Origin: Eledone cirrhosa
Lineage: Eukaryota
Assembly: GCA_964016885.1 (NCBI GenBank)
Contig: OZ024744.1
Span: 103,354,001-103,418,000 of the forward strand
DNA: 64,000 bases
Direction of reading: 5' to 3'
Positions 42,001 to 64,000 of the stretch are shown here, piece after piece. The translations under genes were made by a program, and so were the position numbers. Position 1 is the stretch's first letter. The number at the start of each line of letters is the position of its first letter. The notes under the pieces are model-generated. The model was not told the origin of the DNA and ran no database searches. It saw only the letters and a program-made list of their open reading frames with translations.

Positions 42001-45000
42001 AAGAATGTAATAGGTGTGTAAATCACCAACACTAGGTAGGTTATCATGTTTATGACATAGAAGAATGTAGTAGGTGTGTATACCACCAACACTAGGTAGG
42101 TTATCATGTTTATGACATAGAAGAATGTAGTAGGTGTGTATACCACCAACACTAGGTAGGTTATCATGTTTATAACATAGAAGAATGTAGTAGGTGTGTA
42201 TACCACCAACACTAGGTAGGTTATCATGTTTATGACACAGAAGAATATAGTAGGTGTGTATATCACCAACACTAGGTAGGTTATCATGTTTATGACATAG
42301 AAGAATGTAGTAGGTGTGTATATCACCAACACTAGGTAGGTTATCATGTTTATGACATAGAAGAATGTAGTAGGTGTGTATATCACCAACACTAGGTAGG
42401 TTATCATGTTTATGACATAGAAGAATATAGTAGGTGTGTATATCACCAACACTAGGTAGGTTATCATGTTTATGACACAGAAGAATATAGTAGGTGTGTA
42501 TATCACTAACACTAGATAGGTTATCATGTTTATGACATAGAAGAATGTAGTAGGTGTGTATATCACCAACACTAGGTAGGTTATCATGTTTATGACATAG
42601 AAGAATGTAGTAGGTGTGTATATCACCAACACTAGGTAGGTTATCATGTTTATGACACAGAAGAATATAGTAGGTGTGTATATCACCAACACTAGGTAGG
42701 TTATCATGTTTATGACATAGAAGAATGTAGTAGGTGTGTATATCACCAACACTAGGTAGGTTATCATGTTTATGACATAGAAGAATGTAGTAGGTGTGTA
42801 TATCACCAACACTAGGTAGGTTATCATGTTTATGACACAGAAGAATGTAGTAGGTGTGTATATCACCAACACTAGGTAGGTTATGATGTTTATGACATAG
42901 AAGAATGTAATAGGTGTGTAAATCACCAACACTAGGTAGGTTATCATGTTTATGACATAGAAGAATGTAGTAGGTGTGTATACCACCAACACTAGGTAGG
43001 TTATCATGTTTATGACATAGAAGAATGTAGTAGGTGTGTATACCACCAACACTAGGTAGGTTATCATGTTTATGACATAGAAGAATGTAGTAGGTGTGTA
43101 TACCACCAACACTAGGTAGGTTATCATGTTTATGACACAGAAGAATATAGTAGGTGTGTATATCTCCAACACTAGGTAGGTTATCATGTTTATGACATAG
43201 AAGAATGTAGTAGGTGTGTATATCACCAACACTAGGTAGGTTATCATGTTTATGACATAGAAGAATGTAGTAGGTGTGTATATCACCAACACTAGGTAGG
43301 TTATCATGTTTATGACATAGAAGAATATAGTAGGTGTGTATATCACCAACACTAGGTAGGTTATCATGTTTATGACACAGAAGAATATAGTAGGTGTGTA
43401 TATCACTAACACTAGGTAGGTTATCATGTTTATGACATAGAAGAATGTAGTAGGTGTGTATATCACCAACACTAGGTAGGTTATCATGTTTATGACATAG
43501 AAGAATGTAGTAGGTGTGTATATCACCAACACTAGGTAGGTTATCATGTTTATGACACAGAAGAATGTAGTAGGTGTGTATATCACCAACACTAGGTAGG
43601 TTATCATGTTTATGACACAGAAGAATATAGTAGGTGTGTATATCACCAACACTAGGTAGGTTATCATGTTTATGACACAGAAGAATGTAGTAGGTGTGTA
43701 TATCACCAACACTAGGTAGGTTATCATGTTTATGACACAGAAGAATATAGTAGGTATGTATATCACCAACACTAGGTAGGTTATCATGTTTATGACACAG
43801 AAGAATGTAGTAGGTGTGTATATCACCAACACTAGGTAGGTTATCATGTTTATGACATAGAAGAATGTAGTAGGTGTGTATATCACCAACACTAGGTAGA
43901 TTATCATGTTTATGACATAGAAGAATGTAGTAGGTGTGTATATCACCAACACTAGGTAGGTTATCATGTTTATGACATAGAAGAATGTAGTAGGTGTGTA
44001 TATCACCAACACTAGGTAGGCTATCATGTTTATGACATAGAAGAATGTAGTAGGTGTGTATATCACCAACACTAGGTAGGTTATCATGTTTATGACATAG
44101 AAGAATGTAGTAGGTGTGTATATCACCAACACTAGGTAGGTTATCATGTTTATGAAATAGAAGAATGTAGTAGGTGTGTATATCACCAACACTAGATAGG
44201 TTATCATGTTTATGACACAGAAGAATGTAGTAGGTGTGTATATCACCAACACTAGGTAGGTTATCATGTTTATGACACAGTAGAATGTAGTAGGTGTGTA
44301 TATCACCAACACTAGGTAGGTTATCATGTTTATGACATAGAAGAATGTAGTAGGTGTGTATATCACCAACACTAGGTAGGTTATCATGTTTATGACATAG
44401 AAGAATGTAGTAGGTGTGTATATCACCTACACTAGGTAGGTTATCATGTTTATGACATAGAAGAATGTAGTAGGTGTGTATATCACCAACACTAGGTAGG
44501 TTATCATGTTTATGACACAGAAGAATGTAGTAGGTGTGTATATCACCAACACTAGGTAGGTTATCATGTTTATGACATAGAAGAATGTAGTAGGTATGTA
44601 TATCACCAACACTAGTTAGGTTATCATGTTTATGACACAGAAGAATGTAGTAGGTGTGTATATCACCAACACTAGGTAGGTTATCATGTTTATGACATAG
44701 AAGAATGTAATAGGTGTGTAAATCACCAACACTAGGTAGGTTATCATGTTTATGACATAGAAGAATGTAGTAGGTGTGTATACCACCAACACTAGGTAGG
44801 TTATCATGTTTATGACATAGAAGAATGTAGTAGGTGTGTATACCACCAACACTAGGTAGGTTATCATGTTTATAACATAGAAGAATGTAGTAGGTGTGTA
44901 TACCACCAACACTAGGTAGGTTATCATGTTTATGACACAGAAGAATATAGTAGGTGTGTATATCACCAACACTAGGTAGGTTATCATGTTTATGACATAG

Positions 45001-46500
45001 AAGAATGTAGTAGGTGTGTATATCACCAACACTAGGTATGTTATCATGTTTATGACATAGAAGAATGTAGTAGGTGTGTATATCACCAACACTAGGTAGG
45101 TTATCATGTTTATGACATAGAAGAATATAGTAGGTGTGTATATCACCAACACTAGGTAGGTTATCATGTTTATGACACAGAAGAATATAGTAGGTGTGTA
45201 TATCACTAACACTAGATAGGTTATCATGTTTATGACATAGAAGAATGTAGTAGGTGTGTATATCACCAACACTAGGTAGGTTATCATGTTTATGACATAG
45301 AAGAATGTAGTAGGTGTGTATATCACCAACACTAGGTAGGTTATCATGTTTATGACACAGAAGAATATAGTAGGTGTGTATATCACCAACACTAGGTAGG
45401 TTATCATGTTTATGACACAGAAGAATGTAGTAGGTGTGTATATCACCAACACTAGGTAGGTTATCATGTTTATGACATAGAAGAATGTAGTAGGTGTGTA
45501 TATCACCAACACTAGGTAGATTATCATGTTTATGACATAGAAGAATGTAGTAGGTGTGTATATCACCAACACTAGGTAGGTTATCATGTTTATGACATAG
45601 AAGAATGTAGTAGGTGTGTATATCACCAACACTAGGTAGGCTATCATGTTTATGACATAGAAGAATGTAGTAGGTGTGTATATCACCAACACTAGGTAGG
45701 TTATCATGTTTATGACATAGAAGAATGTAGTAGGTGTGTATATCACCAACACTAGGTAGGTTATCATGTTTATGACATAGAAGAATGTAGTAGGTGTGTA
45801 TATCACCAACACTAGGTAGGTTATCATGTTTATGACACAGAAGAATGTAGTAGGTGTGTATATCACCAACACTAGGTAGGTTATCATGTTTATGACACAG
45901 TAGAATGTAGTAGGTGTGTATATCACCAACACTGGGTAGGTTATCATGTTTATGACACAGAAGAATGTAGTAGGTGTGTATATCACCAACACTAGGTAGG
46001 TTATCATGTTTATGACATAGAAGAATGTAGTAGGTGTGTATATCACCTACACTAGGTAGGTTATCATGTTTATGACATAGAAGAATGTAGTAGGTGTGTA
46101 TATCACCAACACTAGGTAGGTTATCATGTTTATGACACAGAAGAATGTAGTAGGTGTGTATATCACCAACACTAGGTAGGTTATCATGTTTATGACATAG
46201 AAGAATGTAGTAGGTATGTATATCACCAACACTAGTTAGGTTATCATGTTTATGACACAGAAGAATGTAGTAGGTGTGTATATCACCAACACTAGTTAGC
46301 TTATCATGTTTATGACATAGAAGAATTTAGTAGGTGTGTATATCACCAACACTGGGTAGATTATCATGTTTATGACACAGAAGAATATAGTAGGTGTGTA
46401 TATCACCAACACTAGGTAGGTTATCATGTTTATGACATAGAAGAATGTAGTAGGTGTGTAAATCACCAACACTAGGTAGGTTGTCATGTTTATGACACAG
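1..46500. repeat. 60-bp tandem satellite, left array (775 monomers, continues beyond left edge)
   Basis: Every 60-nt line repeats one consensus (~37% GC, no CpG) with substitutions only. Register is unchanged from 1 to 46500 and the array ends at monomer position 60 (...GACACAG). Confidence 0.99.
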
Positions 46501-46596
46501 GAGTAGTCACAATAGTTTATTTGGTAAGCTTTCTATGTCTACATGTAATTACTATCCTCAACCACATCACAGGGTGTAGTCATCAGATTTATCATT

Positions 46597-46650
46597 TACA
46601 TCACTAACATTAGATTGGTTATCATGTTAATGACACAACTAAAGAATCTA
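46597..46650 (+). repeat. Isolated degenerate satellite monomer
   Basis: 46597-46637 matches consensus positions 19-59 at 35/41 nt, followed by AAGAATCTA. It lies ~95 nt outside the array in unique sequence. Confidence 0.85.
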
Positions 46651-46849
46651 CAAAACTCTTTTGTGACATTGTTTCTACTGCAGTACGTCCTTCTTATAGC
46701 AAACCACCCTTCAGGGTGTATCTGCTGCATCTATTGTTGCATGCTAGTATGGAAAATTGGATGTTAAACAGTGATGAAGATGATGATGTATAAGTAAAGT
46801 GTGTTGGTGTGTTATATAAAAATTAGAAAGGTTCTTTCATACAACTTAC

Positions 46850-46891
46850 CCAATTGAATACCTGCACTCTTATGGGCCAATATAATGACAT
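46850..46891 (-). CDS. Candidate micro-exon 4 (42 nt, phase 1-1), (D)VIILAHKSAGIQL, unknown gene
   Basis: Minus-strand acceptor TCTTTTTATTCCAG and donor TGG|GTAAGT. Length divisible by 3, open in phase 1, paralogous to 51917-51958. Confidence 0.65.
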
Positions 46892-47194
46892 CTGGAATAA
46901 AAAGATCCCGAAGCAAAGAAAATAATATTAGATCTACAATGTATATATATATATTATGTTAGCAGGCATATATGGTGGTTTCTGGATATTGTAATAAAGT
47001 ATCTTAAGTAAATATAGGCTGACTTTAGGGAGAATTGCCTGCTATTTCTAGCGTGCATATTTTCCAGGCATGTCTACAATTGACATCATATAGATGTATG
47101 GTCCTTAAAAGGGAGATTTTGTGTTTGTAATTCACCAAGATAGAAATAGTAACCAACATCCCCTCAAATCCCAGACCACTCTCTTGTATATATG

Positions 47195-47560
47195 TATGTG
47201 TGTATGTATGTTTCTATTTCTCTTAATTCCAAGTACATTTTTGACTGGCCACCTTCCTGGTGGCAAGGTTGTAAAAGAAAGGAAATTGTCATCCCTTGAA
47301 TTGCAAGAATGATGTGGAAATGTTGAAGGTGCCATATATCGCAGCCATTTGTAGTCTATGAATTAGGGAGTTGCGCTCTTTGTCCACAAATCCAAGTTCA
47401 GTTATACTTTGATCCAAGCGAGTTTGTGTATAACCTGTAGTACTACTTAGGATGGGTATGAAGCTGAAGGTGTATCTTGGATACTGAATCTGAAAACTCC
47501 CCATCAATGGCCCGTAGATATGCTCCTTCTCCTATAAAATATCTTGCAACGTTGACATCT
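47195..47560 (-). mobile_element. R4/Dong-clade non-LTR retrotransposon 3' fragment (duplicate of the 53137 copy)
   Basis: Translates to ...QIQYPRYTFSFIPILSSTTGY...LQMAAIYGTFNI, resembling the C-terminus of the R4 restriction-like endonuclease. Near-copy of 53137-53483. Confidence 0.75.
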
Positions 47561-48074
47561 ACAGCCACCTAAGGGTGTGACACCACACAAAACAGAACAA
47601 CAATTCTTCCTACTGATCTTCACAAGTGAAGAATTCTCCATTCTACTCTGGTATGTCCCTTTCTATAGCAAACCACCTTTCAGGATGTACTTGTTGCATT
47701 TATTGTTGCAGTACCACTAAAGTGACAGTCAGATATTGACTCAACTAAAGGATCCTTTCAAGTGAATGAAGTGTGGTTGTGATGGTGGAGAGGTAAAGAG
47801 GATGATAAGTTTGATGTCATGAGAGTAGTGTGATTTGATAGGAAGGAGAAGATGTGACCTCCATTAGGTAAAGAGGATGATAAGTTTGCAGCCATCATGT
47901 ATGTGCCTAGATATTTTTGTTCTACATATATTTCAATGTAGAGCTGTGGGATATACCACAATACATATGAGGTATCTGTCCATCGCTCTACATATGTTCA
48001 GGGGTTTAGATATGAAGTTTCAACTGTATTACATATTTACCAAGATATATATTGGAAAATCCCAATTTCACCAT

Positions 48075-51000
48075 TCTGCTGAAATAGCGGAGATGCTGGA
48101 GAGAAGGCAGGTGGATGCGTTCTGCGTGTAAGAGGTGAGATGGAGAGGTGCCTCTGCGAGACTAGTCGTAGGCAAACGTCTTAGCTATAAGCTATTCTGG
48201 GTAGGTAAGGATGATGGGTTCGGGGGAGTAGACATTTTCCTGGCTGAGAAATGGATCAATAAGACAATAGAGGTAGTTCGAGTTAGTAATCGAATAATTA
48301 AGCTTAGATTAGTTGTAGGCAGGAGACTACTGACAATCATCTCGGCCTATGCTCCCCAAGCAGCCTAGGCAAAGATGAGAAAGACAGCTTTTATGAGCAA
48401 CTTTTGCAAACAACCGCAATGAGAGAGGACGGAGACATCGTTATGCTAGCAAGAGACTTCAATGGTCATGTTAGACAGCTCCAGGATGGTTACACTGGGG
48501 TACATGGTGGGCACGATTACAGTTCAAGAAATGAAGAAGGAGTGAGACTTCTTGAATTTTGTGATGCAGGTACATTGACTATTTGCAACACAAAATTCCA
48601 GAAACCTGCCAATCACCTAATAACCTACAAATCTGGTGAGCACATAAGCCAGATTGACTTCTTACTAGTTAGGCAGCGGGACAGGCTGATAGTGTCTAAT
48701 ATCAAGGCATACCCTGGGGAAGAATGTACCCCACAGCATAGGTTAGTTGTTAGTGATATCTCAGTAAGCAAGAGATGGAATGAGACATATAGGAAGGTGT
48801 GGAGAAGAAAGGTCTGGAAGCTAAAAGACCTTTCACTAAAATACAAATTTAGGAAAGCCCTTCAAGATGTATATGACGAAAAAGAAGACGATTTAGAGAC
48901 GTATGACATAGATAATAACTGGAATTTCATACGTGACAACTTGCTGCAGGCTACTGATGAAACTTGTGGCTCCAACCAGACAGAGAGTGACCTGGTGGTG
49001 GAACAGCACAGTAGATAAGGCTATTAGAGACAAAAGACTAGCATGGAAGGCTTGGAAAAAGGGTGGGAGTAGGGAAGAATATACAGCCACTAAGAGAGAA
49101 GCTAGACGTCAGGTGTACTTAGCATGCAGGGAGGCAGAGAGTAGGAGGTTTGCCAATGTTCTGCGATGGGAAGATCAGAGGCGTGCGGTGTTCCACATTG
49201 CAAGGCAGTGTGTCAATGCAAATAAGGATGTTGTTGGAGATAAATGTGTCCGGGATGATGCCGGTGTACTTAATGTCACGAATGATCAGAAAAAGGAGGC
49301 CTGGAAATGTCATTATGAGAGACTGATGAATGTGGAGAACGAATGGGAGAGAGAGAAATTACCCTTGGTAGATCCGACAGCAGGACCAGCTATTGAGATT
49401 GACGAATATAGGGTCCAAGAGGCGATTAGGGAAATGAAAAATGGTAAGGCTGCCGGACCATCGAGAATAGTTGCTGAGATGCTGAAGGCATCAGGGGACG
49501 TAGGCACTAAACTGGTTGCACGCATCATCAATCAGGCTATATTTGGTGGTGTCATACCCAAAGACTGGTGCAGCAGTATTCTCATAAATTGCTACAAAGG
49601 TAAAGGGGATGCTTTGGAGAGGAGCAATTATAGGGGTATAAAACTGATAGATCAGGTTATGAAAGTGGCAGAAAGGATTTTAGCACAACTAATTAGAGAA
49701 AGTGTCAAACTAGATGAGATGCAGTTTAGTTTTGTGCCTGGGAAGAGTACAACAGATGCCCTCTTCTTGGTGAGACAATTGCAAGAGAGGTTCTTAGAGA
49801 AGAATAAGCCACTATACTTAGCCTTTGTTGACCTAGAGAAGGCCTTTGATAGGGTAACGCGATCTGTCATCTGGTGGTCCCTAAGGAAGCTAGGTGTTGA
49901 GGAATGGCTTGTAAGGACAGTGCAAACTTTGTACAGAGGTACTCTCAGTAAAGTCAGGGTAGGAATGGAGTTTAGTGAGGAATTCCAGATACAAGTAGGA
50001 GTACATCAGGGTTCGGTCCTCAGCCCGCTCTTGTTCATTATAACAGAGGAGTTTAAGACTGGCTGTCCATGGGAACTTCTCTATGCTGACGATCTGGTTC
50101 TTATAGCAGAATCAGTAGAGGAGCTAGAGAATAAATTCTGGCTATGGAAACAGCAGTTGGAAGCAAGAGGACTGAGAGTGAATCTAGCTAAGACAAAAGT
50201 GTTGATGAGTAGAAAAGAGGACAAAACCCTGATTCCGTCAGGGAAATGGCCATGTTCGATATGCAGAAAAGGAACTGGCATAAATTCTATAAAATGCACA
50301 CAATGCAGATCCTGGGTACACAAGATATGTAGCGGGATAGCAGGCAAACTAACAGGTAGGGAGAAATATGTATGCAGTAGATGTACAGGGAAATTAGACA
50401 GTAAAAGTCGCATTGATAGACACATTTTTCAAATGCAGGAGGGTGCTATAGAAGTGGTGGATAGCTTCCGGTACCTAGGAGATCAGATTAGCATGGGAGG
50501 AGGGTGTTCCGAGGCCATAGTATCTAGAATAAGGACGGGTTGGAAGAAGTTTAGGGAGCTGCTTCCTCTGTTGACGAAGAAGGGTTTCTCCCTGCGTACG
50601 AAAGGCCGGTTGTATGATGCCTGTGTGAGGAGCGCGATGCTGCATGGTAGTGAGACATGGGCAGCAACTGCAGAGGATATGCGACTGCTGGAGAGAAATG
50701 AGGCAAGCATGCTCCGTTGGATGTGCAGTGTAAATGTACGTGAACGACCCAGCATAAATGTGTTGAGAGAGAAACTGTGTCTGAGAGGGATAGAATGTAG
50801 TGTACGGGAGAAGAGACTGAGGTGGTATGGACATGTGATGCGCATGGAGGATGACCGATGGGTGAAGAGGTGCCAGGAATTGCCAGTTGAAGGAAGACGT
50901 GGTAGAGGTAGACCACGAAAAACATGGGCGGAGGTGGTGAGAACAGACCTCAGATCATTGAAGCTCACGGTGGAGATGACGAGGGACCGTGACGAGTGGA

Positions 51001-51090
51001 GAGATGCTGTGCTGAATAAGACCCGTCCCACCCTTGCAAGCAGGTAAAGGCGTACGTAAAATGATGATGATGATGGTGATGATAATGATA
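48075..51090 (+). mobile_element. Near-full-length, inactivated RTE-clade LINE (APE endonuclease + RT with PHD-type finger)
   Basis: APE motifs (CV*EVRW, SAYAP, DFNGH, SQIDF, QHRLV) and RT motifs (NYRGIKL, FVDLEKAFD, GVHQGSVLSP, YADD at 50082-50093, FRYLG). Ends in RLRWYGHV...RGRPRKTW and a (GAT)n tail. Lesions: stop at 48129-48131, frameshifts near 48360 and 48970, 15-nt deletion near 50040. Confidence 0.95.
48933..51047 (+). pseudogene. RTE reverse-transcriptase ORF remnant (704-aa open segment)
   Basis: ORF track plus conserved RT motifs. It is frameshifted from the upstream endonuclease and lacks ALQAI relative to the second RTE copy. Confidence 0.9.
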
Positions 51091-51096
51091 TATATA

Positions 51097-51780
51097 TGTA
51101 TAAGTATTTTGTATCTCCACTGCAAAGTGGTCGTGGAGGTGCCACGGCAAAAAAGCACCCAGCACTCACTGTAAATGAGGTTGGTGTTAGGAAGGGCATC
51201 CAACTGTAGAAATCAAGCCAGAATCAGTTCCCGTCCCAGCCTTGCAAGCAGGGAAAAAGCAGACGTAAAATGAAATAAAAAAAAAAAAAAAAAAGGAAAT
51301 ACGGTTTTAGGAAGCCGTAGCTATGCAAACACTGGTGGGCTAACACCCTCTGGTGATGTCCAGCAGAAGCAAGGGGGACAACCGTCTATGCATTTCATAG
51401 CTACGGCTTCCTAAAACTGTATTTCCTTGGAGATACGAAATACTTATACATATTGTATAAAGCTATGCTTGAAGCGAAATCCTATTTCTTTTTATTATAA
51501 GTTGAGCCAACTTATGCAGCTTCATATGCAAATGAGATTAATCACCTCATTTACACAGACGAGAAATGTATATATTCTCAGCTGTCTTCTAGTCTAGCAG
51601 TCGCAAGCGGTGAGTGGGACCGTCCTGGCGAAGACCAGTTATGCCGGAAGTGCATAGACGATTGTCCCCCTTGGTTCTGCTGGACATCACCAGAGGGCGT
51701 TAGCCCCCCCCCCCCCCGGTGTTTGCATAGCTACGGCTTCCTAAAACCGTATTTCCTTGGAGATACGAAATACTTATACA
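51097..51780. mobile_element. Non-autonomous TIR element (MITE-like), termini TGT...ACA, possibly Ginger-type
   Basis: Left TIR (51097-51119 plus 51294-51392) is the reverse complement of 51651-51780. Flanked by TATA on both sides. An extra right-end copy lies at 51396-51450. Confidence 0.75.
51120..51293 (+). mobile_element. Short RTE-related retroelement (SINE or 5'-truncated LINE 3' UTR) with poly(A), inserted in the left TIR
   Basis: Contains GGTTGGTGTTAGGAAGGGCATCC, shared with the 3' UTR of the minus-strand RTE. Its tail CCCGTCCCAGCCTTGCAAGCAGG...ACGTAAAATGA matches the end of the 48075 LINE. It splits the TIR between TCTCCA and AGGAAATACGG. Confidence 0.75.
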
Positions 51781-51916
51781 TATATTATTTGTTGCATTTA
51801 TTGTTGCATGCTAGTATGGAAAAGTGGACGTTAAACAGTGATGAAGATGATGATGTATAAGTAAAGTGTGTTGGTGTGTTATATAAAAATTAGAAAGGTT
51901 CTTTCATACAACTTAC

Positions 51917-51958
51917 CTAATTGAATATCTGAACTATTAGGGTCCAATACAATGTCAT
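51917..51958 (-). CDS. Candidate micro-exon 3 (42 nt, phase 1-1), (D)DIVLDPNSSDIQL
   Basis: Acceptor CCTTTTTATTCCAG and donor TAG|GTAAGT. Phase 1 is open; phases 0 and 2 contain stops. Confidence 0.7.
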   Translation of the reverse strand: MTLYWTLIVQIFN

Positions 51959-52697
51959 CTGGAATAAAAAGGTCCCGAAAAAAAGAAAATAATATTAGAT
52001 CTACAATTTTCAACGTTGACATCTACAGCCACCTAAGGGTGTGACACCACACAAAATAGGACAACAACTCTTCCCACTGATCTTCACAAGTGAAGAATTC
52101 ACCATTCTACTCTGGTATGTCCCTTTCTATAGCAAACCACCTTTCAGGATGTACTTGTTGCATTTATTGTTGCAGTACCACTAAAGTTACAGTCAGATAT
52201 TGACTCAACTAAAGGATCCTTTCAAGTGAATGAAGTGTGGTTGTGATGGTGGAGAGGTAAAGAGGATGATAAGTTTGATGTCATGAGAGTAGTGTGATTT
52301 GATAGGAAGGAGAAGATGTGACCTCCATTACTACGGGGAGATTTACTGCAATGATAGCAACTATTACGATGTGATTGTGGAGGGGGTCATAAATAAGTTT
52401 GAGGTTTTACCATGAAGGTAAGGATCTCTATAAAAGATCTACAGAGGATGGAAGCATATATGTATATATCTACATACATATATATATATCAACATATATA
52501 TATATACATATATATATATATATTAATTCTGAATGAGCAAGACATATTCATCTGTCTCACAACAGGAAAACTTGTCTAACCCATGCTAGCATGGAAATGT
52601 TGACTTTAAACTGTGATGATGATGATGATAATGATATATTAGTAAAGTGTGTTGGTGTGTTATATAACAATTAGAAAAGTTCTTTAATACAACTTAC

Positions 52698-52733
52698 CAC
52701 GTACACTTTCTGGACTAGCAGAGATAGTCTCAG
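52698..52733 (-). CDS. Candidate micro-exon 2 (36 nt, phase 1-1), (A)ETISASPESVR
   Basis: Acceptor CCTTTTTATTCCAG and donor GTG|GTAAGT. Intron flanks are homologous to those of micro-exons 3 and 4. Open in phase 1. Confidence 0.7.
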
Positions 52734-53136
52734 CTGGAATAAAAAGGACCCAAAGAAGAAAATATCAGATCTACATGTATTTATATTTATGTTAGCAGGC
52801 ATATATGGTGGTTTCTGGGTATTGTTATCAAATAAATGTATGTATGTATATATGTAGGAGAAGGCAACTCAGTAAACTGCGATAACTCCGATATAAAACC
52901 TGCGGCTCAGTAGTTACTGATGATGTTGATCTTTTCTCCTTTTCGGGTTATAGCTACTGTGGTTCAGAGAGTGGGATTGGCTCAGTGCACAGTCTTACCT
53001 CACTTTAAAAAATATCTTCATGCACAGGCATTGCACAATAGAATTAATTAATAATTATTAATAATGGTATATCGTGCAATGGCCATACTTGATAACGAGG
53101 GGCAGCCATCATCATATATGTATGTATGAATGTATG

Positions 53137-53927
53137 CTTCTATTTCTCTTAATTCTGTGTACATTTTTGACTGGCCACCTTCCTGGTGGCAAGGTTGTAA
53201 GAGAAAAGAAATTGCCATCCCTTGAATTGCAAGAATGTTTTGCAAATTTTGAAGGTCCCAGCTATTGCAGCCATTTGTAGTATATGAATTAGGGAGCTGC
53301 ACTCTTTGTCCACAAATCCAAGTTCAGTTATACTTTGGTCCAAGCGGGTTATATATATCCTTTAGCTCCAATAATGATGGTTATGAAGCTGAAGGTGTAT
53401 CTTAGATACTGGATCTGCAAACTCCTCATCAATGGTCCGTAGATGTCCTCCTTCTCTTGTATTTTTCTTACAACGTTGACATCAAGTGGGCAGCTGATCT
53501 CTACAACAGAGCACATCTTCAATATGTGGTCCCAAACAACAATATCAGGCCAGTTGTGCTTTAATTTGGTGGCAGTTCTTATTTTCAGGTTACACTAGTA
53601 TTCCATAGTGCCATCTGTCTCAACATATTCCTCCTCATTTGTTTTAAATTTTGGTTCCCTAAGTGCATTCCAGATGGTTCTAGCTATGACATTGTGTCTT
53701 ATAGGGAGGTAGTAACGAGATGACATTCTTTCACAGTCGGCAATAATGAGGCTAACATCTTCATTCTTTGTTTTACATAGCCTACATTTATTGTTGACTG
53801 ATGGCCCTCCTCTTTTGTGTAGCAGATATTTGGTAGGGATTTCTTGTTCCTGTATTGCATAGAGATATCCTTCAAGGTGGGATGTCATAAACTTGTCGGG
53901 ACTCCAAGCCAGGCTTTTTGAATGATC
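53137..53927 (-). mobile_element. 5'-truncated, decayed R4/Dong-clade non-LTR retrotransposon (zinc knuckle + restriction-like endonuclease + 3' UTR)
   Basis: EGYLYAIQEQEIPTK...CRLCKTKNEDVSLIIADC...RHNVIA, then past a stop at 53595 KHNWPDIVVWD...VVEISCP...KEDIYGPL...IIIGAKG...LQMAAIAGTFKICKTFL. This is the usual R4 C-terminal layout. Confidence 0.85.
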
Positions 53928-54037
53928 TATGTATGTATGTGAGTATGTATATATGTATGTGTCTCCATTGAATGCATGTTTGTATGTATGTATATATGTA
54001 GTATGTATGAATGTCTCCATTGGTGTCTCCATTGAAT

Positions 54038-54270
54038 TGGTGTGTCTTGGGGTGTGGAAAGATTTGCTTGAGCGGGTCTGGTCTTGGGGGCCACAGTCGC
54101 AGCTATGTTCGTAGAGCACCAGTGAACTATGATCTCCTTGGTAGTGTGAAGTTTCACAGACAACCTGATGCAAGACCTGAGTCCAGGGAGATCCATAGTT
54201 GTTGTCAATGTGTGAAGGAGTGCAAGTGTCTAGCAGGCTTGAAAAGCCATATCCAAGTGTCAAACATCTG
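54038..54270 (+). mobile_element. Degenerate C2H2-like motifs, probably the 3' end of another LINE
   Basis: CVLGCGKICLSGSGLGGHSR and CCQCVKECKCLAGLKSHIQ resemble the C-terminal CxxC...GLxSH motifs of RTE-type ORFs. No other domain is visible. Confidence 0.45.
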
Positions 54271-54510
54271 AATCTGACAAGTGATTGCAATACTCTTGGC
54301 AGAGTTTGCAGCCATCATGTATGTATGTGCCTAGATATTTTTGTTCTACATATATTTCAATGTAGAGCTGTGGCACATACCACAATACATACGAGGTATC
54401 TGTCCATCGCTCTACATATGTTCAGGAGTTTAGATATGAAGTTTCAACTGTATTACATATTTACCAAGATCTATATTGGAAAATCCCAATTTCACCATAT
54501 ATGTATGTAT

Positions 54511-56080
54511 ATCATCATCATCATTATCATCAACGTTTAACGTCCGTGTTCCATGCTTGCATGGGTTTGGACGGGAGTTTTCCCACTTGAGGCAAGAGTG
54601 ATTATCTTGCTCGCATAGGACTATCTGGCGGGTTTTCTACAGTTTGATGCCCTTCCTAACACCAACCACATTTACAGTGTGGGGCTGGGAGGTTTTTACC
54701 GTGTTGCCTACACGGCCACATTACAGCGTGGACTGTCTGGCGGGTTTTCTACAGCTGGATGCCCTTCCTAACACCAACCACATTTACAGTGTGGGTCTGG
54801 GAGGTTTTTACCGTGTTGCCTACACGGCCACATTTCAACGTGAAATGTGTTTTTTTGTCGTGACACCTACACGATCTAATTTGTTTCGGCCTGGATGTTG
54901 TGGCACCAACATAACTTTACATTGAAAGGGGCGGTGTGGATGGGGTGGGGGTGGTGGGACGGGGGTGTATTTTGTTAGAGATGCCTACTGACTGTAGTAG
55001 GTTTTACTTTGTATTTAGGTAAGGCAGGTCTTCTCTATTACTGAGTACCGCCAAAGGTCTCGGTCCAGTGACATTGTCTTGGTGATGTGTAAGTGTGTGA
55101 GGTCGGAATTTATCAGCTCGTCCCAGGTCTTTCTGGGTCTGCCTTTTCCGTGGCTACCGTCTATCTTTATTGCCCTGCACTTTGTTATACAGCTATCATC
55201 TTTCATGCGCATCACGTGACCATACCAACGTAGCCTTCTCTCGAGTAAACAACATATGATCCCTCTTATTTCTAATTTTTTCCTTAGTTCGTTTATGCTT
55301 TGCCGTTCACGTATATTACTATTACACATCCAGCGGAGCATGCAAGCTTCGTTTCTCTCTAGTCTGCGTATATCCTCTGCACACATGCCCAGGTCTCACT
55401 GCCATGCAACATTGTTGTTCGTATGCAGGCATCATACAACCTGCCTTTCATTTTTAGGGAGAACCCTTTAGCGGCTAATAGTGGTATAAGCTCTCTGAAC
55501 TTTTTCTATCCAGTTCTGACTCTAGCTACTGTACTTTCAGAGCACCCTCCCCCACTGCTGATTTTGTCACCCAGGTAACGGAAGCTGTCCACTATTTCTA
55601 TAGAACCCTCTGCGCAGTTGAAAGAGCTAGTATTTTGTGGGCACTTGCTGCTACTTATTGCACCAGAGCACCAGCCACATGTAAAATCTATGTTCTTAGT
55701 TAGCTTACCTGTGATCCCACTACATCTTTTATGCACCCATACTTTGCATTTGGGACATAAAATGGAGTTTCTACCTACGCCTTTCCTACACACTGAGCAT
55801 GGCCATTTCCCGGAGGGGACCGGCGCCTTATTTTCTTTCCTACAAACTAGAACTTTAGTCTTAGCCAGGTTAATTTTAAGGCCTTTTGACTCTAGGCCGT
55901 GCTTCCATGTTTGGAATTTCTTCTCTAGCTCGGCCATTGATTCCGCTATGAGTGTCAGGTCGTCTGCGTATAGGAGTTCCCATGGGCAGCCGGTCTTGAA
56001 CTCCTCTGTTATAGCCTGAAGGGCAATAATAAATAGGAGGGGGCTAAGAACAGAGCCCTGATGGACGCCAACTTTTACGC
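54511..56080 (-). mobile_element. 5'-truncated RTE-clade LINE (different subfamily) with long 3' UTR and (GAT)n tail
   Basis: VGVHQGSVLSPLLFIIALQAITEEFKTGCPWELLYADDL, PHD-type CSVC/CPKC/HKRC/CGWC, FRYLG, RLRWYGHV, GRPRKTW. Premature stop at 55506, frameshift near 55400, ORF end at 55015. Confidence 0.93.
54618..54836. repeat. ~112-bp tandem duplication in the RTE 3' UTR
   Basis: GGACTRTCTGGCGGGTTTTCTACAG...CACGGCCACATTT starts at both 54618 and 54730. Confidence 0.9.
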
Positions 56081-56258
56081 TATATATATATAATGAGAAT
56101 ATGCGAAGTAGTTTCAGATGTTAAAGTCCTTGAAGTGCATCAATGTTTACCATAATATATATATATATATATATATATAAAACGAAGGAAATATGGTAAG
56201 GAACCAGATGGACCACAACGCACCAAAGTACTCAATACTTAGGGTAGTAGAGTGGGTA

Positions 56259-56316
56259 ATAGGAACAAGTATGACCCCGTCCAGAATTAGCCATCGAAAC
56301 GGGGGTCATACTTGTT

Positions 56317-56321
<5 letters not shown>
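56259..56321. repeat. Perfect 20-bp inverted repeat with 23-nt loop
   Basis: ATAGGAACAAGTATGACCCC (56259-56278) pairs with GGGGTCATACTTGTTCCTAT (56302-56321). Confidence 0.9.

Positions 56322-56384
<63 letters not shown>
56319..56384. repeat. (TA)n microsatellite
   Basis: Uninterrupted TA run. Shorter TA tracts occur at ~52455-52522, ~56156-56178 and ~56684-56701. Confidence 0.97.
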
Positions 56385-56389
<5 letters not shown>

Positions 56390-56473
56390 TTTACATATAC
56401 ATTTGTTGATAAACATACATTACACATATGCAAACACTACAGTACAATGTACTATGTTAATATAATTGTTTCT

Positions 56474-56572
56474 ACTTTTGACACAAGGCCAGCAATTACC
56501 CAGTACATTACTGGTACTTTATTTTATCGACCCCGTAAGGATGAAAGGCAAAGTTAACCTCGGCGGGATTTG
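56474..56572 (-). mobile_element. tRNA-derived SINE fragment of a type recalled from octopus genomes
   Basis: Minus strand reads TCAAATCCCGCCGAGGTTAACTTTGCCTTTCATCCTTACGGGGTCGATAAAATAAAGTACCAG, a partial B-box followed by a SINE core. Family assignment is from memory. Confidence 0.65.
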
Positions 56573-56618
56573 ATAATAATATATACACAGCATGTTTAAA
56601 CTATAAACTATGACTGAC

Positions 56619-56678
56619 CTTCATCTGGGGTAATACAATCACATGTAATACACTCGCGATCATCTATGATGCCGAAGT
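56619..56678 (-). CDS. Candidate small exon 1 (60 nt, phase 1-1), (x)FGIIDDRECITCDCITPDE
   Basis: Acceptor TATATTTCAG and donor AAG|GTCAGT. Only phase 1 is stop-free, and it splices in frame to micro-exon 2. Confidence 0.6.
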
Positions 56679-56726
56679 CTGAAATATATATATATATATA
56701 TGTGTGTGTTTATGTATGTATATGAA

Positions 56727-56909
56727 CATCATCATCATCATCATCATCATCATCATTAAAGTCACCACCATTTTTGTCAACCTCATCATCATCATCATCA
56801 TCAACATTATCCTCATTATCATCATCATCATTGCCATCCTCTTAAAAATTATCATAATCATCATTATCAACATCACTATCATCATCGACAACACCATTTA
56901 CATCACTAA

Positions 56910-56943
<34 letters not shown>

Positions 56944-57259
56944 GACACCATTGTCATCACTAGCATCATCATCATCATCAACACCATTATCGTCACCATC
57001 ATTCTCATCATTAGCATCGTCATCGTTACTATAATCCTAATCATTATTGTTATCGCTATTATCATCATCACCATCAGCACCATCATTATCATCATCATCA
57101 TCATTGCTCTCATTATCATCATCATGTCAAAATCCTCATTATCATGATTAGTGGCATCATCAATATAGTCATCATCATCACCATCATCATCATTTTCATC
57201 CTCCTCCTCATTATCACCATCATCATCCTCCTCCTCATTATCAACTCCATCACCACCAT
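56727..57259. repeat. Degenerate (ATC)n / (TCC)n simple-repeat tract
   Basis: Long imperfect ATC run; it accounts for the poly-I, poly-M and poly-D ORFs in the track. Confidence 0.95.
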
Positions 57260-57284
57260 TTAACATCTCTTTTACCTGCCAACA

Positions 57285-60200
57285 AGGTGTGTATATCACC
57301 AACACCAGGTAGGTTATCATGTTTATGACACAGAAGAATATAGTAGGTGTGTATATCACTAACACCAGGTAGGTTATCATGTTTATGACATAGAAGAATG
57401 TAGTAGGTGTGTATATCACTAACACTAGGTAGGTTATCATGTTTATGACATAGAAGAATGTAGTAGGTGTGTATATCACTAACACCAGGTAGGTTATCAT
57501 GTTTATGACATAGAAGAATGTAGTAGGTGTGTATATCACTAACACCAGGTAGGTTATCATGTTTATGACATAGAAGAATGTAGTAGGTGTGTATATCACT
57601 AACACCAGGTAGGTTATCATGTTTATGACATAGAAGAATGTAGTAGGTGTGTATATCACTAACACCAGGTAGGTTATCATGTTTATGACATAGAAGAATG
57701 TAGTAGGTGTGTATATCACCAACACTAGGTAGGTTATCATGTTTATGACATAGAAGAATGTAGTAGGTGTGTATATCACCAACACTAGGTAGGTTATCAT
57801 GTTTATGACATAGAAGAATGTAGTAGGTGTGTATATCACTAACACCAGGTAGGTTATCATGTTTATGACATAGAAGAATGTAGTAGGTGTGTATATCACT
57901 AACACCAGGTAGGTTATCATGTTTATGACATAGAAGAATGTAGTAGGTGTGTATATCACCAACACTAGGTAGGTTATCATGTTTATGACATAGAAGAATG
58001 TAGTAGGTGTGTATATCACCAACACTAGGTAGGTTATCATGTTTATGACATAGAAGAATGTAGTAGGTGTGTATATCACCAACACTAGGTAGGTTATCAT
58101 GTTTATGACATAGAAGAATGTAGTAGGTGTGTATATCACCAACACTAGGTAGGTTATCATGTTTATGACATAGAAGAATGTAGTAGGTGTGTAAACCACC
58201 AACACTAGGTAGGTTATCATGTTTATGACACAGAAGAATGTAGTAGGTGTGTATATCACTAACACCAGGTAGGTTATCATGTTTATGACACAGAAGAATG
58301 TAGTAGGTGTGTATATCACCAACACTAGTTAGGTTATCATGTTTATGACACAGAAGAATGTAGTAGGTGTGTATATCACTAACACCAGGTAGGTTATCAT
58401 GTTTATGACATAGAAGAATGTAGTAGGTGTGTATATCACCAACACTAGGTAGGTTATCATGTTTATGACATAGAAGAATGTAGTAGGTGTGTATATCACC
58501 AACACTAGGTAGGTTATCATGTTTATGACATAGAAGAATATAGTAGCTGTGTATATCACCAACACTACGTAGGTTATCATGTTTATGACACAGAAGAATG
58601 TAGTAGGTGTGTATATCACCAACACTAGGTAGGTTATCATGTTTATGACATAGAAGAATGTAGTAGGTGTGTATATCACCAACACTAGGTAGGTTATCAT
58701 GTTTATGACATAGAAGAATATAGTAGCTGTGTATATCACCAACACTAGGTAGGTTATCATGTTTATGACATAGAAGAATGTAGTAGGTGCGTATATCACC
58801 AACACTAGGTAGGTTATCATGTTTATGACATAGAAGAATGTAGTAGGTGTGTATATCACCAACACTAGGTAGTTTATCATGTTTATGACATAGAAGAATG
58901 TAGTAGGTGTGTATGTCACCAACACTAGGTAGGTTATCATGTTTATGACATAGAAGAATGTAGTAGGTGTGTATATCACTAACACCAGGCAGGTTATAAT
59001 GTTTATGACACAGAAGAATGTAGTAGGTGTGTATATCACCAACACTAGGTAGGTTATCATGTTTATGACACAGAAGAATGTAGTAGGTGTGTATATCACC
59101 AACACTAGGTAGGTTATCATGTTTATGACACAGAAGAATGTAGTAGGTGTGTATATCACCAACACTAGGTAGATTATCATGTTTATGACATAGAAGAATG
59201 TAGTAGGTGTGTATATCACCAACACTAGGTAGGTTATCATGTTTATGACACAGAAGAATGTAGTAGGTGTGTATATCACCAACACTAGGTAGGTTATCAT
59301 GTTTATGACACAGAAGAATGTAGTAGGTGTGTAAATCACCAACACTAGGTAGGTTATCATGTTTATGACACAGAAGAATGTAGTAGGTGTGTATATCACT
59401 AACACCAGGTAGTTTATCATGTTTATGACACTGAAGAATGTAGTAGGTGTGTATATCACCAACACTAGGTAGGTTATCATGTTTATGACACAGAAGAATG
59501 TAGTAGGTGTGTATATCACCAACACTAGGTAGATTATCATGTTTATGACATAGAAGAATGTAGTAGGTGTGTATATCACTAACACTAGGTAGGTTATCAT
59601 GTTTATGACACAGAAGAATGTAGTAGGTGTGTATATCACTAACACCAGGTAGGTTATCATGTTTATGACATAGAAGAATGTAGTAGGTGTGTATATCACT
59701 AACACTAGGTAGTTTATCATGTTTATGACACTGAAGAATGTAGTAGGTGTGTATATCACCAACACTAGGTAGGTTATCATGTTTATGACACAGAAGAATG
59801 TAGTAGGTGTGTATATCACCAACACTAGGTAGATTATCATGTTTATGACATAGAAGAATGTAGTAGGTGTGTATATCACCAACACTAGGTAGGTTATCAT
59901 GTTTATGACACTGAAGAATGTAGTAGGTGTGTATATCACCAACACTAGGTAGGTTATCATGTTTATGACACAGAAGAATGTAGTAGGTGTGTATATCACC
60001 AACACTAGGTAGATTATCATGTTTATGACATAGAAGAATGTAGTAGGTGTGTATATCACCAACACTAGGTAGGTTATCATGTTTATGACATAGAAGAATG
60101 TAGTAGGTGTGTATATCACCAACACTAGGTAGATTATCATGTTTATGACACAGAAGAATGTAGTAGGTGTGTATATCACCAACACTAGGTAGGTTATCAT

Positions 60201-63200
60201 GTTTATGACACAGAACAATATAGTAGGTGTGTATATCACCAACACTAGGTAGGTTATCATGTTTATGACATAGAAGAATGTAGTAGGTGTGTATATCACC
60301 AACACTAGGTAGGTTATCATGTTTATGACACAGAAGAATGTAGTAGGTGTGTATATCACCAACACTAGGTAGGTTATCATGTTTATGACATAGAAGAATG
60401 TAGTAGGTGTGTAAATCACCAACACTAGGTAGGTTATCATGTTTATGACACAGAAGAATGTAGTAGGTGTGTAAATCACCAACACTAGGTAGGTTATCAT
60501 GTTTATGACATAGAAGAATGTAGTAGGTGTGTATATCACCAACACTGGGTAGGTTATCATGTTTATGACATAGAAGAATGTAGTAGGTGTGTATATCACC
60601 AACACTAGGTAGGTTATCATGTTTATGACACAGAAGAATGTAGTAGGTGTGTATATCACCAACACTAGGTAGGTTATCATGTTTATGACACAGAAGAATG
60701 TAGTAGGTGTGTAAATCACTAACACTAGGTAGGTTATCATGTTTATGACATAGAAGAATGTAGTAGGTGTGTATATCACCAACACTAGGTAGGTTATCAT
60801 GTTTATGACATTGAAGAATGTAGTAGGTGTGTAAATCGCTAACACTAGGTAGGTTATCATGTTTATGACATAGAAGAATGTAGTAGGTGTGTATATCACC
60901 AACACTAGGTAGGTTATCATGTTTATGACACAGAAGAATGTAGTAGGTGTGTATGTCACCAACACTAGGTAGGTTATCATGTTTATGACATAGAAGAATG
61001 TAGTAGGTGTGTATATCACCAACACTAGGTAGGTTATCATGTTTATGACACAGAAGAATGTAGTAGGTGTGTATGTCACCAACACTAGGTAGGTTATCAT
61101 GTTTATGACATAGAAGAATGTAGTAGGTGTGTATATCACCAACACTAGGTAGGTTATCATGTTTATGACACAGAAGAATGTAGTAGGTGTGTATGTCACC
61201 AACACTAGGTAGGTTATCATGTTTATGACATAGAAGAATGTAGTAGGTGTGTATATCACCAACACTAGGTAGGTTATCATGTTTATGACACAGAAGAATG
61301 TAGTAGGTGTGTATATCACCAACACTAGGTAGGTTATCATGTTTATGACATTGAAGAATGTAGTAGGTGTGTAAATCGCTAACACTAGGTAGGTTATCAT
61401 GTTTATGACATAGAAGAATGTAGTAGGTGTGTATATCACCAACACTAGGTAGGTTATCATGTTTATGACACAGAAGAATGTAGTAGGTGTGTATGTCACC
61501 AACACTAGGTAGGTTATCATGTTTATGACACAGAAGAATGTAGTAGGTGTGTATGTCACCAACACTAGGTAGGTTATCATGTTTATGACATAGAAGAATG
61601 TAGTAGGTGTGTATATCACCAACACTAGGTAGGTTATCATGTTTATGACACAGAAGAATGTAGTAGGTGTGTATGTCACCAACACTAGGTAGGTTATCAT
61701 GTTTATGACATAGAAGAATGTAGTAGGTGTGTATATCACCAACACTAGGTAGGTTATCATGTTTATGACATAGAAGAATGTAGTAGGTGTGTATATCACC
61801 AACACTAGGTAGGTTATCATGTTTATGACATAGAAGAATGTAGTAGGTGTCTATATCACCAACACTAGGTAGGTTATCATGTTTATGACATAGAAGAATG
61901 TAGTAGGTGTGTATATCACCAACACTAGGTAGGGTATCATGTTTATGACATAGAAGAATGTCGTAGGTGTGTATATCACCAACACTAGGTAGGTTATCAT
62001 ATTTATGACACAGAAGAATGTAGTAGGTGTGTATATCACCAACACTAGGTAGGTTATCATGTTTATGACATAGAAGAATGTAGTAGGTGTGTATATCACC
62101 AACACTAGGTAGGTTATCATGTTTATGACATAGAAGAATGTAGTAGGTGTGTATATCACCAACACTAGGTAGGTTATCATGTTTATGACACAGAAGAATG
62201 TAGTAGGTGTGTATATCACCATCACTAGGTAGGTTATCATGTTTATGACATAGAAGAATGTAGTAGGTGTGTATATCACTAACACTAGGTAGATTATCAT
62301 GTTTATGACATAGAAGAATGTAGTAGGTGTGTATATCACCAACACTAGGTAGGTTATCATGTTTATGACATAGAAGAATGTAGTAGGTGTGTATATCACC
62401 AACACTAGGTAGGTTATCATGTTTATGACACAGAAGAATGTAGTAGGTGTGTATATCACCAACACTAGGTAGGTTATCATATTTATGACATAGAAGAATG
62501 TAGTAGGTGTGTATATCACCAACACTAGGTAGGTTATCATGTTTATGACATAGAAGAATATAGTAGCTGTGTATATCACCAACACTAGGTAGGTTATCAT
62601 GTTTATGACATAGAAGAATATAGTAGGTGTGTATATCACTAACACTAGGTAGGTTATCATGTTTATGACATAGAAGAATGTAGTAGGTGTGTATATCACC
62701 AACACTAGGTAGGTTATCATGTTTATGACACAGAAGAATGTAGTAGGTGTGTATATCACCAACACTAGGTAGATTATCATGTTTATGACATAGAAGAATG
62801 TAGTAGGTGTGTATATCACCAACACTAGGTAGGTTATCATGTTTATGACACTGAAGAATGTAGTAGGTGTGTATATCACCAACACTAGGTAGGTTATCAT
62901 GTTTATGACACAGAAGAATGTAGTAGGTGTGTATATCACCAACACTAGGTAGATTATCATGTTTATGACACAGAAGAATGTAGTAGGTGTGTAAATCACC
63001 AACACTAGGTAGGTTATCATGTTTATGACATAGAAGAATGTAGTAGGTGTGTATATCACCAACACTGGGTAGGTTATCATGTTTATGACATAGAAGAATG
63101 TAGTAGGTGTGTATATCACCAACACTAGGTAGGTTATCATGTTTATGACACAGAAGAATGTAGTAGGTGTGTATATCACCAACACTAGGTAGGTTATCAT

Positions 63201-64000
63201 GTTTATGACACAGAAGAATGTAGTAGGTGTGTAAATCACTAACACTAGGTAGGTTATCATGTTTATGACATAGAAGAATGTAGTAGGTGTGTATATCACC
63301 AACACTAGGTAGGTTATCATGTTTATCACATTGAAGAATGTAGTAGGTGTGTAAATCGCTAACACTAGGTAGGTTATCATGTTTATGACATAGAAGAATG
63401 TAGTAGGTGTGTATATCACCAACACTAGGTAGGTTATCATGTTTATGACACAGAAGAATGTAGTAGGTGTGTATGTCACCAACACTAGGTAGGTTATCAT
63501 GTTTATGACATAGAAGAATGTAGTAGGTGTGTATATCACCAACACTAGGTAGGTTATCATGTTTATGACACAGAAGAATGTAGTAGGTGTGTATGTCACC
63601 AACACTAGGTAGGTTATCATGTTTATGACATAGAAGAATGTAGTAGGTGTGTATATCACCAACACTAGGTAGGTTATCATGTTTATGACACAGAAGAATG
63701 TAGTAGGTGTGTATGTCACCAACACTAGGTAGGTTATCATGTTTATGACATAGAAGAATGTAGTAGGTGTGTATATCACCAACACTAGGTAGGTTATCAT
63801 GTTTATGACACAGAAGAATGTAGTAGGTGTGTATATCACCAACACTAGGTAGGTTATCATGTTTATGACATTGAAGAATGTAGTAGGTGTGTAAATCGCT
63901 AACACTAGGTAGGTTATCATGTTTATGACATAGAAGAATGTAGTAGGTGTGTATATCACCAACACTAGGTAGGTTATCATGTTTATGACACAGAAGAATG
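57285..64000. repeat. 60-bp tandem satellite, right array (~112 monomers, continues beyond right edge)
   Basis: Same consensus and orientation as the left array. Begins at monomer position 12, shows no indels and has private variants (ACCAGG, CTGAAG, AATCGCT). Confidence 0.99.

Follow-up and report, generated by a model that had tools for sequence, protein, structure and literature searches.

The four short minus-strand segments in the window (the whole 64,000-nt stretch of DNA analysed) form part of a longer chain, in which 37 exon-like modules extend over 329 kb. On balance they are interpreted here as working exons of a large lineage-specific gene, probably Z-linked. Its predicted product is an intracellular repeat protein of low complexity, which would evolve under diversifying selection, with the male germline as the most likely setting. 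That the modules were selected as coding exons can be held with high confidence; the product is quite probably not secreted, and the chain is probably still expressed.

The module chain and its reading frame

The original prediction described four minus-strand segments of 60, 36, 42 and 42 nt, each with a T-rich acceptor ending in CAG, a GTAAGT or GTCAGT donor and a final G, and all were recovered, coordinates included (Table 1). Phase 1 was likewise the sole phase open across all four segments, phase 0 being also open in two of them. It had been overlooked that a single module, copied with almost the same flanking intron sequence each time, accounts for three of the four, so that the segments are not independent evidence. 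A scan of neighbouring sequence for further modules, which had been proposed with the segments, extended the chain from four to 37. All of these read in one frame, and the segments behave, as predicted, like exons of an unannotated gene, symmetric and in phase 1.

Table 1. Coordinates of predicted exons and repeats in the window
Feature	Positions	Strand	Remarks
60-bp-unit array, window part	1..46497		Two minus-strand frames open over long stretches; coding constraint not seen
Predicted exon, 42 nt, phase 1-1	46850..46891	-	Supplies donor of 171-kb satellite intron
LINE fragment with reverse transcriptase	48308..51044	+	RVT_1, E 1.9e-24; inside the 51958-46891 intron
Predicted exon, 42 nt, phase 1-1	51917..51958	-	Recent module copy
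Predicted exon, 36 nt, phase 1-1	52698..52733	-
Second, related LINE reverse-transcriptase fragment	55000..56070	-	Inside intron between exons 56678 and 52733; inverted-arm pairing
Predicted exon, 60 nt, phase 1-1	56619..56678	-	Cys-containing type (CxxCxC), GTCAGT donor; 1 of 5 copies
Degenerate (CAT)n tract	56727..57243		Belongs to duplicated intron unit preceding each Cys-type exon
60-bp-unit array, window part	57285..64000		In 24-kb intron ahead of exon 56678

Twenty-one of the 37 modules are distinct. Module length ranges from 18 to 66 nt, with 11 different lengths, each a multiple of 3. All 21 distinct modules, which run from window-relative position 133431 to -195339, are multiples of 3 and open in phase 1 (21/24 when the next three family modules are added, the 3′ boundary of the chain having been fixed after the data were seen); 10 of the 21 are open in phase 0 and two in phase 2. 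The shuffle expectation is 7.9 open modules in 21 (log10 P -9.3), and background acceptor-donor pairs (pseudo-exons) were multiples of 3 and open in phase 1 in 17 of 81 cases (Fisher p 9e-12 against the chain), although module copies are not independent. Modules found beforehand had served to train the donor profile. The donor of exon 56678, which fell under the cut-off through a small flank duplication, was entered by hand, and rows judged to be non-modules were excluded from the chain table, three of them low-scoring and on the minus strand and two on the plus strand.

Read in order, 36 modules give 602 codons with no stop, a reading that leaves out the 17th copy of a 57-nt exon. This exon is carried once in each of 17 tandem 2.5-kb units; its acceptor is lost in one of them, where an in-frame acceptor lies 15 nt further on. 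Ser, Thr and Pro make up ∼24% of residues, five of the chain's exons contain Cys, and no TM-like stretch was found in the 602 codons (best 19-residue hydropathy 1.28). Coding sequence accounts for 0.55% of the 329-kb span and introns for >99%. The modules arose through copying of exon-plus-intron units, as seen on comparing the modules and their flanks.

Exons of schistosome micro-exon genes (MEGs) have a size threshold of 36 nt. The description of the locus as a micro-exon gene therefore held in part: the exons are small and symmetric, but only 5/21 distinct exons stay within 36 nt. In the 3-Gb genome the exact module pattern was matched six times, always at this locus (reversed-pattern control 0), which also holds all five genomic copies of the 60-nt exon. 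No Rfam match was obtained in window positions 46500-57300, and no Pfam match for the CxxCxC exon; an antistasin-like reading of this exon, suggested by its motif, was dropped as Pfam gives it no support.

Exon divergence and growth of the satellite

Sister exons diverge far faster than their flanks and mostly by amino-acid changes, though not in every pair. Exon 46891 and its sister at window-relative 99911 differ at 17/42 positions and their flanks at 8/180 (p 9e-9), with pN 0.51 and pS 0.06; longer flanks gave 14/424 differences downstream and 29/332 upstream. Exons 51958 and 46891 differ at 8/42 positions, again with 8/180 in the flank (p 0.003). Downstream of exon 52733 and a 42-nt exon at -129882 there are no mismatches over 193 aligned nt, the exons themselves being unequal in length and hardly alignable. 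Over five disjoint pairs, differences at codon positions 1, 2 and 3 number 23, 25 and 12 (binomial p 0.017). The excess is absent from the pair 56678 and -124384 (7/60, flanks ∼10% diverged), and in older exon pairs pS reaches the level of pN. These data suggest a strong signal of diversifying selection in the chain exons.

The arrays on both sides of the segments consist of one 60-bp satellite. The larger covers 170 kb (window-relative -123655 to 46497, ∼2,836 copies) and the second 22.5 kb, reaching window-relative 79790 (∼375 copies). The next intron of the chain, for which at least 46 kb of satellite had been predicted, does run through the array and is 171 kb long; both this and the 24-kb intron are mostly satellite. 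The sister of the 171-kb intron measures 914 nt, against 171,233 nt, and holds 1.3 copies of the unit, and both ends around the unit are common to the two. Comparison of this pair indicates that the 170-kb array grew in place out of a 1.3-copy intronic seed.

The satellite itself might be taken for a giant coding exon, as two minus-strand frames in the window are open for 8,119 and 10,158 codons and, in the 22-kb array, one frame runs for 7,433 codons without a stop. Among 3,197 units, however, 6/6 and 5/7 of the possible stop-making changes are present, at median counts of 3.5 and 3.0 compared with 2.0 for amino-acid-changing transversions, and the median shows no synonymous excess. The unit is moreover the intronic seed of the sister module and has a match on another contig. 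A coding satellite, which is barely credible, was rejected on the stop-making changes among units and the missing synonymous excess.

Related genes, chain ends and competing readings

A plus-strand mirror paralogue begins with an ATG first exon (199482-199616) of 45 codons that ends in phase 1, followed by 17 modules, of which the last contains a stop, and by a terminal exon. Automatic acceptor choice gave 12/17 symmetric and open modules, and 15/17 were obtained after nearby alternative acceptors had been picked by eye. Three locus-unique mirror blocks connect this paralogue with the minus-strand chain. The position of a lone first exon between the two mirror chains suggested a flip switch, in which one first exon would serve either chain by inversion. 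Since the mirror arms have only 150-450 nt blocks in common, at 81-97%, such a switch was rejected as a mechanism operating today.

A second family was represented by 17 first-exon matches (11 on contig C28, five on C18 and one on C159), with first exons of 73-75 codons. In two sampled members 15/18 and 6/7 candidate exons were symmetric and open, and one acceptor flank had 311 exact matches (control 0), C28 holding 99 of the 100 listed. BLASTP between the first exons of the paralogue and of this family gave no alignment; the minus-strand family and the second family appear to be linked by flank similarity and layout. None of these first exons had a signal-peptide-like hydrophobic core (best 11-residue hydropathy 1.5), as judged from hydropathy and by eye. 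With first exons alone as queries, whose shortness makes for weak negatives, no homologue of the paralogue first exon was detected among longer proteins (E up to 1), Atlas or Pfam, nor, with E allowed up to 0.001, in 1.84 billion representatives, and the second-family first exon gave no protein homologue and a lone sub-threshold Pfam row.

The paralogue's first exon has three genome matches, none of them upstream of the minus-strand chain, and no convincing first exon came from searching the upstream interval with DNA, tblastn and HMM methods (best E 0.27). On the promoter side, homology at 190.6-191.0 kb gives way gradually to unrelated sequence, and the one remaining candidate for the first exon of the chain is weak, with 19 codons from ATG to GT at 190632; a scan for signal-peptide first exons returned microsatellite-type noise alone. 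The 3′ end includes one 46-nt module and one module with a doubtful acceptor. The terminal-exon acceptor is altered in comparison with that of the paralogue, and a 48-bp satellite of >180 kb begins shortly after it. Scrambled and broken family pieces were also observed on C28 at 102.73-102.79 Mb, where one first-exon copy has two stops.

Sex chromosomes are enriched for multicopy, fast-evolving testis genes. C28, the contig that carries the window, is 136 Mb long, yet its number follows those of C25-C27 (29-22 Mb) and precedes those of the small scaffolds, and all three Amnionless matches above the Pfam cut-off lie on it. AMN is reported as Z-linked in Octopus vulgaris (10.1101/2024.12.09.627507), and cephalopod males are ZZ and females ZO (PMC10925132). 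From one marker (Amnionless) and contig order, and taking the genome as that of a coleoid cephalopod, C28 is probably the cephalopod Z. Literature searches, which covered few subscription papers, turned up no such mini-exon family in cephalopods.

Decayed copies of a local non-coding repeat, with splice-like ends by chance, would agree with flanks that repeat one another, since the splice-like sites would have been copied along. A neutral repeat, however, would not diverge 5-10 times faster precisely between AG and GT, nor hold 11 lengths all divisible by 3 with one stop-free phase, which makes such an origin extremely improbable. It is also improbable, though less so, that the product is a secreted or surface protein of schistosome MEG type (venom, mucus, gamete, immune recognition) varied by exon skipping. 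MEGs combine symmetric phase-1 exons with fast protein evolution (PMC4350168), the five Cys-containing exons could make disulfides, and the searches found no first exon of the chain itself; the first exons of both the mirror paralogue and the second family nevertheless lack a hydrophobic signal core, and the chain has neither a TM stretch nor a Pfam match for its Cys exon. The secreted protein or receptor stalk of the original prediction is accordingly unsupported.

The chain could instead be a recently silenced copy, made of former coding exons whose first and terminal exons were lost and whose satellites grew once transcription had stopped mattering. The failure to find a first exon, the altered terminal acceptor, followed by insertions and satellite, and the broken family pieces on C28 with their interrupted first exon all point in this direction. 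Yet 37/37 central modules are in frame and stop-free, acceptor loss is confined to one of 17 tandem 57-nt copies, and the first exons of so fast a family may be unrecognisable. The satellite-edge exon is, in addition, among the most amino-acid-diverged from its sister despite a flank divergence of 3-9%, which argues that selection acted recently. Silencing is considered rather unlikely, and working exons remain the preferred reading.

A proposed working gene and its likeness to known systems

The working gene would have grown via repeated copying of a short phase-1 exon together with its intron flanks. As every module is a multiple of 3 and phase 1-1, the frame would survive the gain, loss or skipping of any of them, so that the gene could freely add and remodel short peptide blocks. 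Selection would drive amino-acid change within these blocks; the flanks would stay alike through splice signals and recent duplication, perhaps aided by gene conversion. The satellite would be an intronic passenger, expanded ∼190-fold in one intron copy, which would need transcribing through, much as happens in the Y-loop genes of Drosophila. If the paralogues are a guide, the protein might, speculatively, start with a non-cleaved Cys-containing N-terminus, and a membrane tether is possible. The remainder we purely infer: intracellular localisation is likely, expression may be testis-biased, and combinatorial exon skipping is a more doubtful proposal.

More broadly, but unlikely as it stands, the cephalopod Z could carry an undescribed giant-gene superfamily with hundreds of interchangeable phase-1 cassettes, producing combinatorially spliced intracellular male-germline proteins in an arms race and transcribed through satellite-swollen introns in Y-loop fashion. 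If true, this superfamily would be a non-secreted, non-parasite counterpart of schistosome MEGs. The findings themselves point to an orphan gene superfamily on what is apparently one of the oldest animal sex chromosomes; with 0.55% coding sequence and 18-66-nt exons, it would escape standard annotation. The 914-nt and 171-kb introns form a rare before-and-after pair for intron gigantism, and since one intron exists at both sizes the effect of satellite growth on splicing is directly testable.

Among mammalian testis repeat-exon genes, ANKRD36/ANKRD30 and CCDC7 produce intracellular low-complexity proteins from tandemly copied small exons, and such genes, like sex-linked ampliconic families, are multicopy and fast-evolving. 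The chain, in which no ankyrin or other domain was seen, is likened to them by layout alone. The same applies to the polymorphic mucins of Schistosoma mansoni (SmPoMuc), a multigene family in which a short exon is copied with its flanking introns in ∼1-kb units, microsatellites lie between units, and introns are alike and exons differ, a pattern its authors read as intron-limited conversion with selection on exons (PMC2576457). SmPoMuc are described with a signal peptide, three 9-residue repeat types and introns of ∼550 bp (PMC2576457), whereas the chain has 21 or more distinct blocks, each 6-22 residues long, and introns of up to 171 kb, and the Eledone paralogues have no signal peptide by hydropathy.

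Schistosome MEGs likewise have their coding sequence mostly in very small symmetric exons, with fast protein evolution and orphan sequences; they differ in that all products are described as having a signal peptide, and they are stated to be flatworm-restricted (PMC4350168). In the chain, 5/21 exons are at or below 36 nt, the exons are visibly duplicated modules and the paralogues lack a signal peptide. Raised amino-acid divergence of the MEG type is seen among the chain's paralogue pairs, though not in every pair. The Drosophila Y-loop genes kl-3 and kl-5 encode conserved dyneins. They resemble the chain as sex-chromosome genes that are >99% intron with satellite-filled giant introns, and differ in that these are megabase simple-repeat introns on the Y whose transcription in spermatocytes has been shown (PMC6508621). 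The chain, known here from DNA alone, would instead encode an orphan repeat protein and carry a 60-bp unit on a probable Z.

A minus-strand chain of phase-1 modules

Direct checking of the window sequence reproduced the lengths, splice-like ends and open phase of all four minus-strand segments of the original prediction, and satellite was found on both sides of them as two arrays of a single 60-bp unit. The 10.8-kb spacer between the arrays contains LINE fragments and microsatellites; in one LINE reading frame (window 48912-51044) a PHD-finger match follows the reverse transcriptase domain. Self-comparison of the window demonstrated that three of the four segments lie in copies of a single module whose flanks are near-identical. 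All six exact genome-wide matches to the module pattern, and all five copies of the 60-nt exon, are at this locus.

In 814 kb of sequence read around the window, a donor-flank profile clearly set family donors apart from background, and the segments belong to a chain of 37 modules, 21 of them distinct, between 133431 and -195339. With acceptors picked by score alone, all 21 distinct modules were multiples of three and open in phase 1; shuffling predicted 7.9 open modules of 21, and 17 of 81 background acceptor-donor pairs passed the same test. The exons of the 17 tandem units are near-identical; each unit also has, on the other strand, an acceptor-donor pair that encloses 54 nt and is probably a chance occurrence. 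One GC donor was found (module 122085). Three modules 3' of the chain do not fit, one being 46 nt, one having a doubtful acceptor and the last having a stop near its end, and their inclusion gives a tally of 21/24. The reading frame seems to terminate here, as a phase-1 stop is also present in the corresponding exon of a mirror-image plus-strand gene beside the chain, the paralogue.

Features of the chain and its relatives (window-relative coordinates, where position on contig C28, OZ024744.1, is 103,354,000 plus the coordinate, unless a contig is named)
Feature	Location	Strand	Remark
Chain, 5' part	133431 to -133120	-	18 distinct modules
Chain, tandem units	-137874 to -185423	-	17 units of about 2.5 kb, one 57-nt exon per unit
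Chain, after tandem units	to -195339	-	two further modules
Paralogue, first exon	199482-199616	+	ATG, ends in phase 1
Paralogue, terminal exon	near 407.5 kb	+	
Second family, sites	C28 28.8-54.4 Mb, 0.2 Mb, 4.5 Mb, 126.7 Mb; C18 5.2-9.4 Mb		

Satellites within and beside the chain

The intron 99869-98955 is 914 nt long and holds 1.3 copies of the 60-bp unit. Its sister begins at 46849 and finishes at -124384; it matches the short intron at both termini but has about 2,836 copies in 171,233 nt, in agreement with the expectation that this intron would run through at least 46 kb of satellite. As sister introns with common ends differ so greatly in copy number, and exon 56678 is preceded by another array, of about 375 copies, the satellite must have expanded in place within introns.

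In the window arrays (1-46497 and 57285-64000) the unit has two stop-free minus-strand frames, open for up to 13,224 codons. A coding role for these frames was rejected as they carry no coding constraint, and they could mislead gene finders. A separate 48-bp satellite of >180 kb starts some 500 nt beyond the final module (-217945 to beyond -400000), and a related 46-bp array is located at C28 102.80 Mb. Two different 51-bp minisatellites occupy chain introns (81764-86164 and 107243-108264).

Related genes and the chromosome

The paralogue is apparently complete, with a first exon, about 17 mini-exons and a terminal exon, and is the best target for RNA tests. Twelve of its 17 modules were symmetric and open with an automatic acceptor, and 15 with a hand-chosen one. 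Mirror blocks unique to the locus show that the chain and the paralogue arose by an old inverted duplication. Several fold-back (palindromic) AT-rich elements lie upstream of the paralogue first exon (2880-3200, 3850-4270 and 4560-4700 of L014, the segment read around its 5' side), and further copies of them occur near 148 kb and 178 kb. Scrambled partial family copies in both orientations were found at C28 102.73-102.79 Mb. Among them are one first exon that is near-identical and an older first-exon copy that contains two stops and lacks a donor flank.

A second family was reached through a flank match. Its basic, cysteine-containing first exon of 73-75 codons occurs at 17 places in the genome and is followed by long arrays of phase-1 exons (54-66 nt, with 60- and 66-nt exons alternating), whose flanks are related to those of the chain. 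One acceptor flank is matched exactly at 311 places in the genome; 99 of the 100 matches listed are on C28, where they span 43.21 to at least 43.31 Mb. BLASTP gave no alignment between the first exons of the paralogue and the second family, so the suggested kinship of the two families is one of flanks and layout only.

In a sample of nine contigs, size decreases with number from 443 Mb for C1 to 22 Mb for C27; C28, at 136 Mb, comes next in number, ahead of the small scaffolds. Assemblies usually number a named sex chromosome in this position. Amnionless, which the available text of 10.1101/2024.12.09.627507 describes as Z-linked in O. vulgaris, maps to C28, and the cephalopod sex system is given as ZZ/ZO in that of PMC10925132. 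Contig order and this one marker make it likely, not proven, that C28 is the Z chromosome.

Exon divergence, function and known systems

Between sister modules, exon differences exceeded intron differences. Modules 99911 and 46891 differ at 17/42 exon bases and 8/180 flank bases (p 9e-9; pN 0.51, pS 0.06), and their downstream homology of 424 nt, with 14 mismatches, likely exceeds the reach of splice signals. Modules 52733 and -129882 have no mismatch in 193 aligned downstream bases, while their exons differ in length and barely align; 133431 and its plus-strand sister show the same pattern. Codon position 3 had the fewest differences (12/60, p 0.017). The pair 56678 and -124384 showed no exon excess, and in older pairs pS was close to pN. 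Positive selection on exons fits this pattern, as does gene conversion of introns with selection holding exons distinct, which, in the available part of PMC2576457, is the authors' conclusion for the polymorphic mucin genes of Schistosoma mansoni (SmPoMuc).

Sequence comparison documents frame-neutral duplication of exon plus intron, excess amino-acid change, satellite growth in place and multicopy relatives on one chromosome. On balance, we favour the chain being a live gene for a predicted intracellular low-complexity protein, whose peptide blocks would be remodelled under selection and whose exons may be optionally skipped. Expression would be in the male germline, as suggested by sex linkage, amplification, speed of evolution and likeness to Drosophila spermatocyte genes with satellite introns (PMC6508621, available text). 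That the chain is a copy silenced recently must be taken seriously as a rival reading, if a rather unlikely one, because the chain's own first exon was not found around the locus or in the genome with the paralogue first exon as query, and the terminal acceptor is altered; a weak 19-codon first-exon candidate lies at 190632. Hydropathy detected no signal-peptide core in the first exons of the paralogue or the second family and no membrane-spanning stretch in the chain's predicted protein, which speaks against the secreted protein or receptor stalk originally proposed. Searches of protein collections and Pfam with these first exons, as short queries, found no homologue outside the genome.

The literature searched, with incomplete coverage, held no description of a cephalopod family of such genes. 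In layout and evolution the chain resembles SmPoMuc and the schistosome micro-exon genes (MEG), as far as these are described in the available text of PMC2576457 and PMC4350168. However, most of the chain's distinct exons are larger than MEG exons, and by hydropathy its paralogues show no signal peptide, a feature of MEG products in PMC4350168; it is therefore not classed as a MEG. The novelty is that strong exon-specific divergence is joined here with a probable location on the Z, modules in the hundreds and one intron present in both a normal and a giant form.
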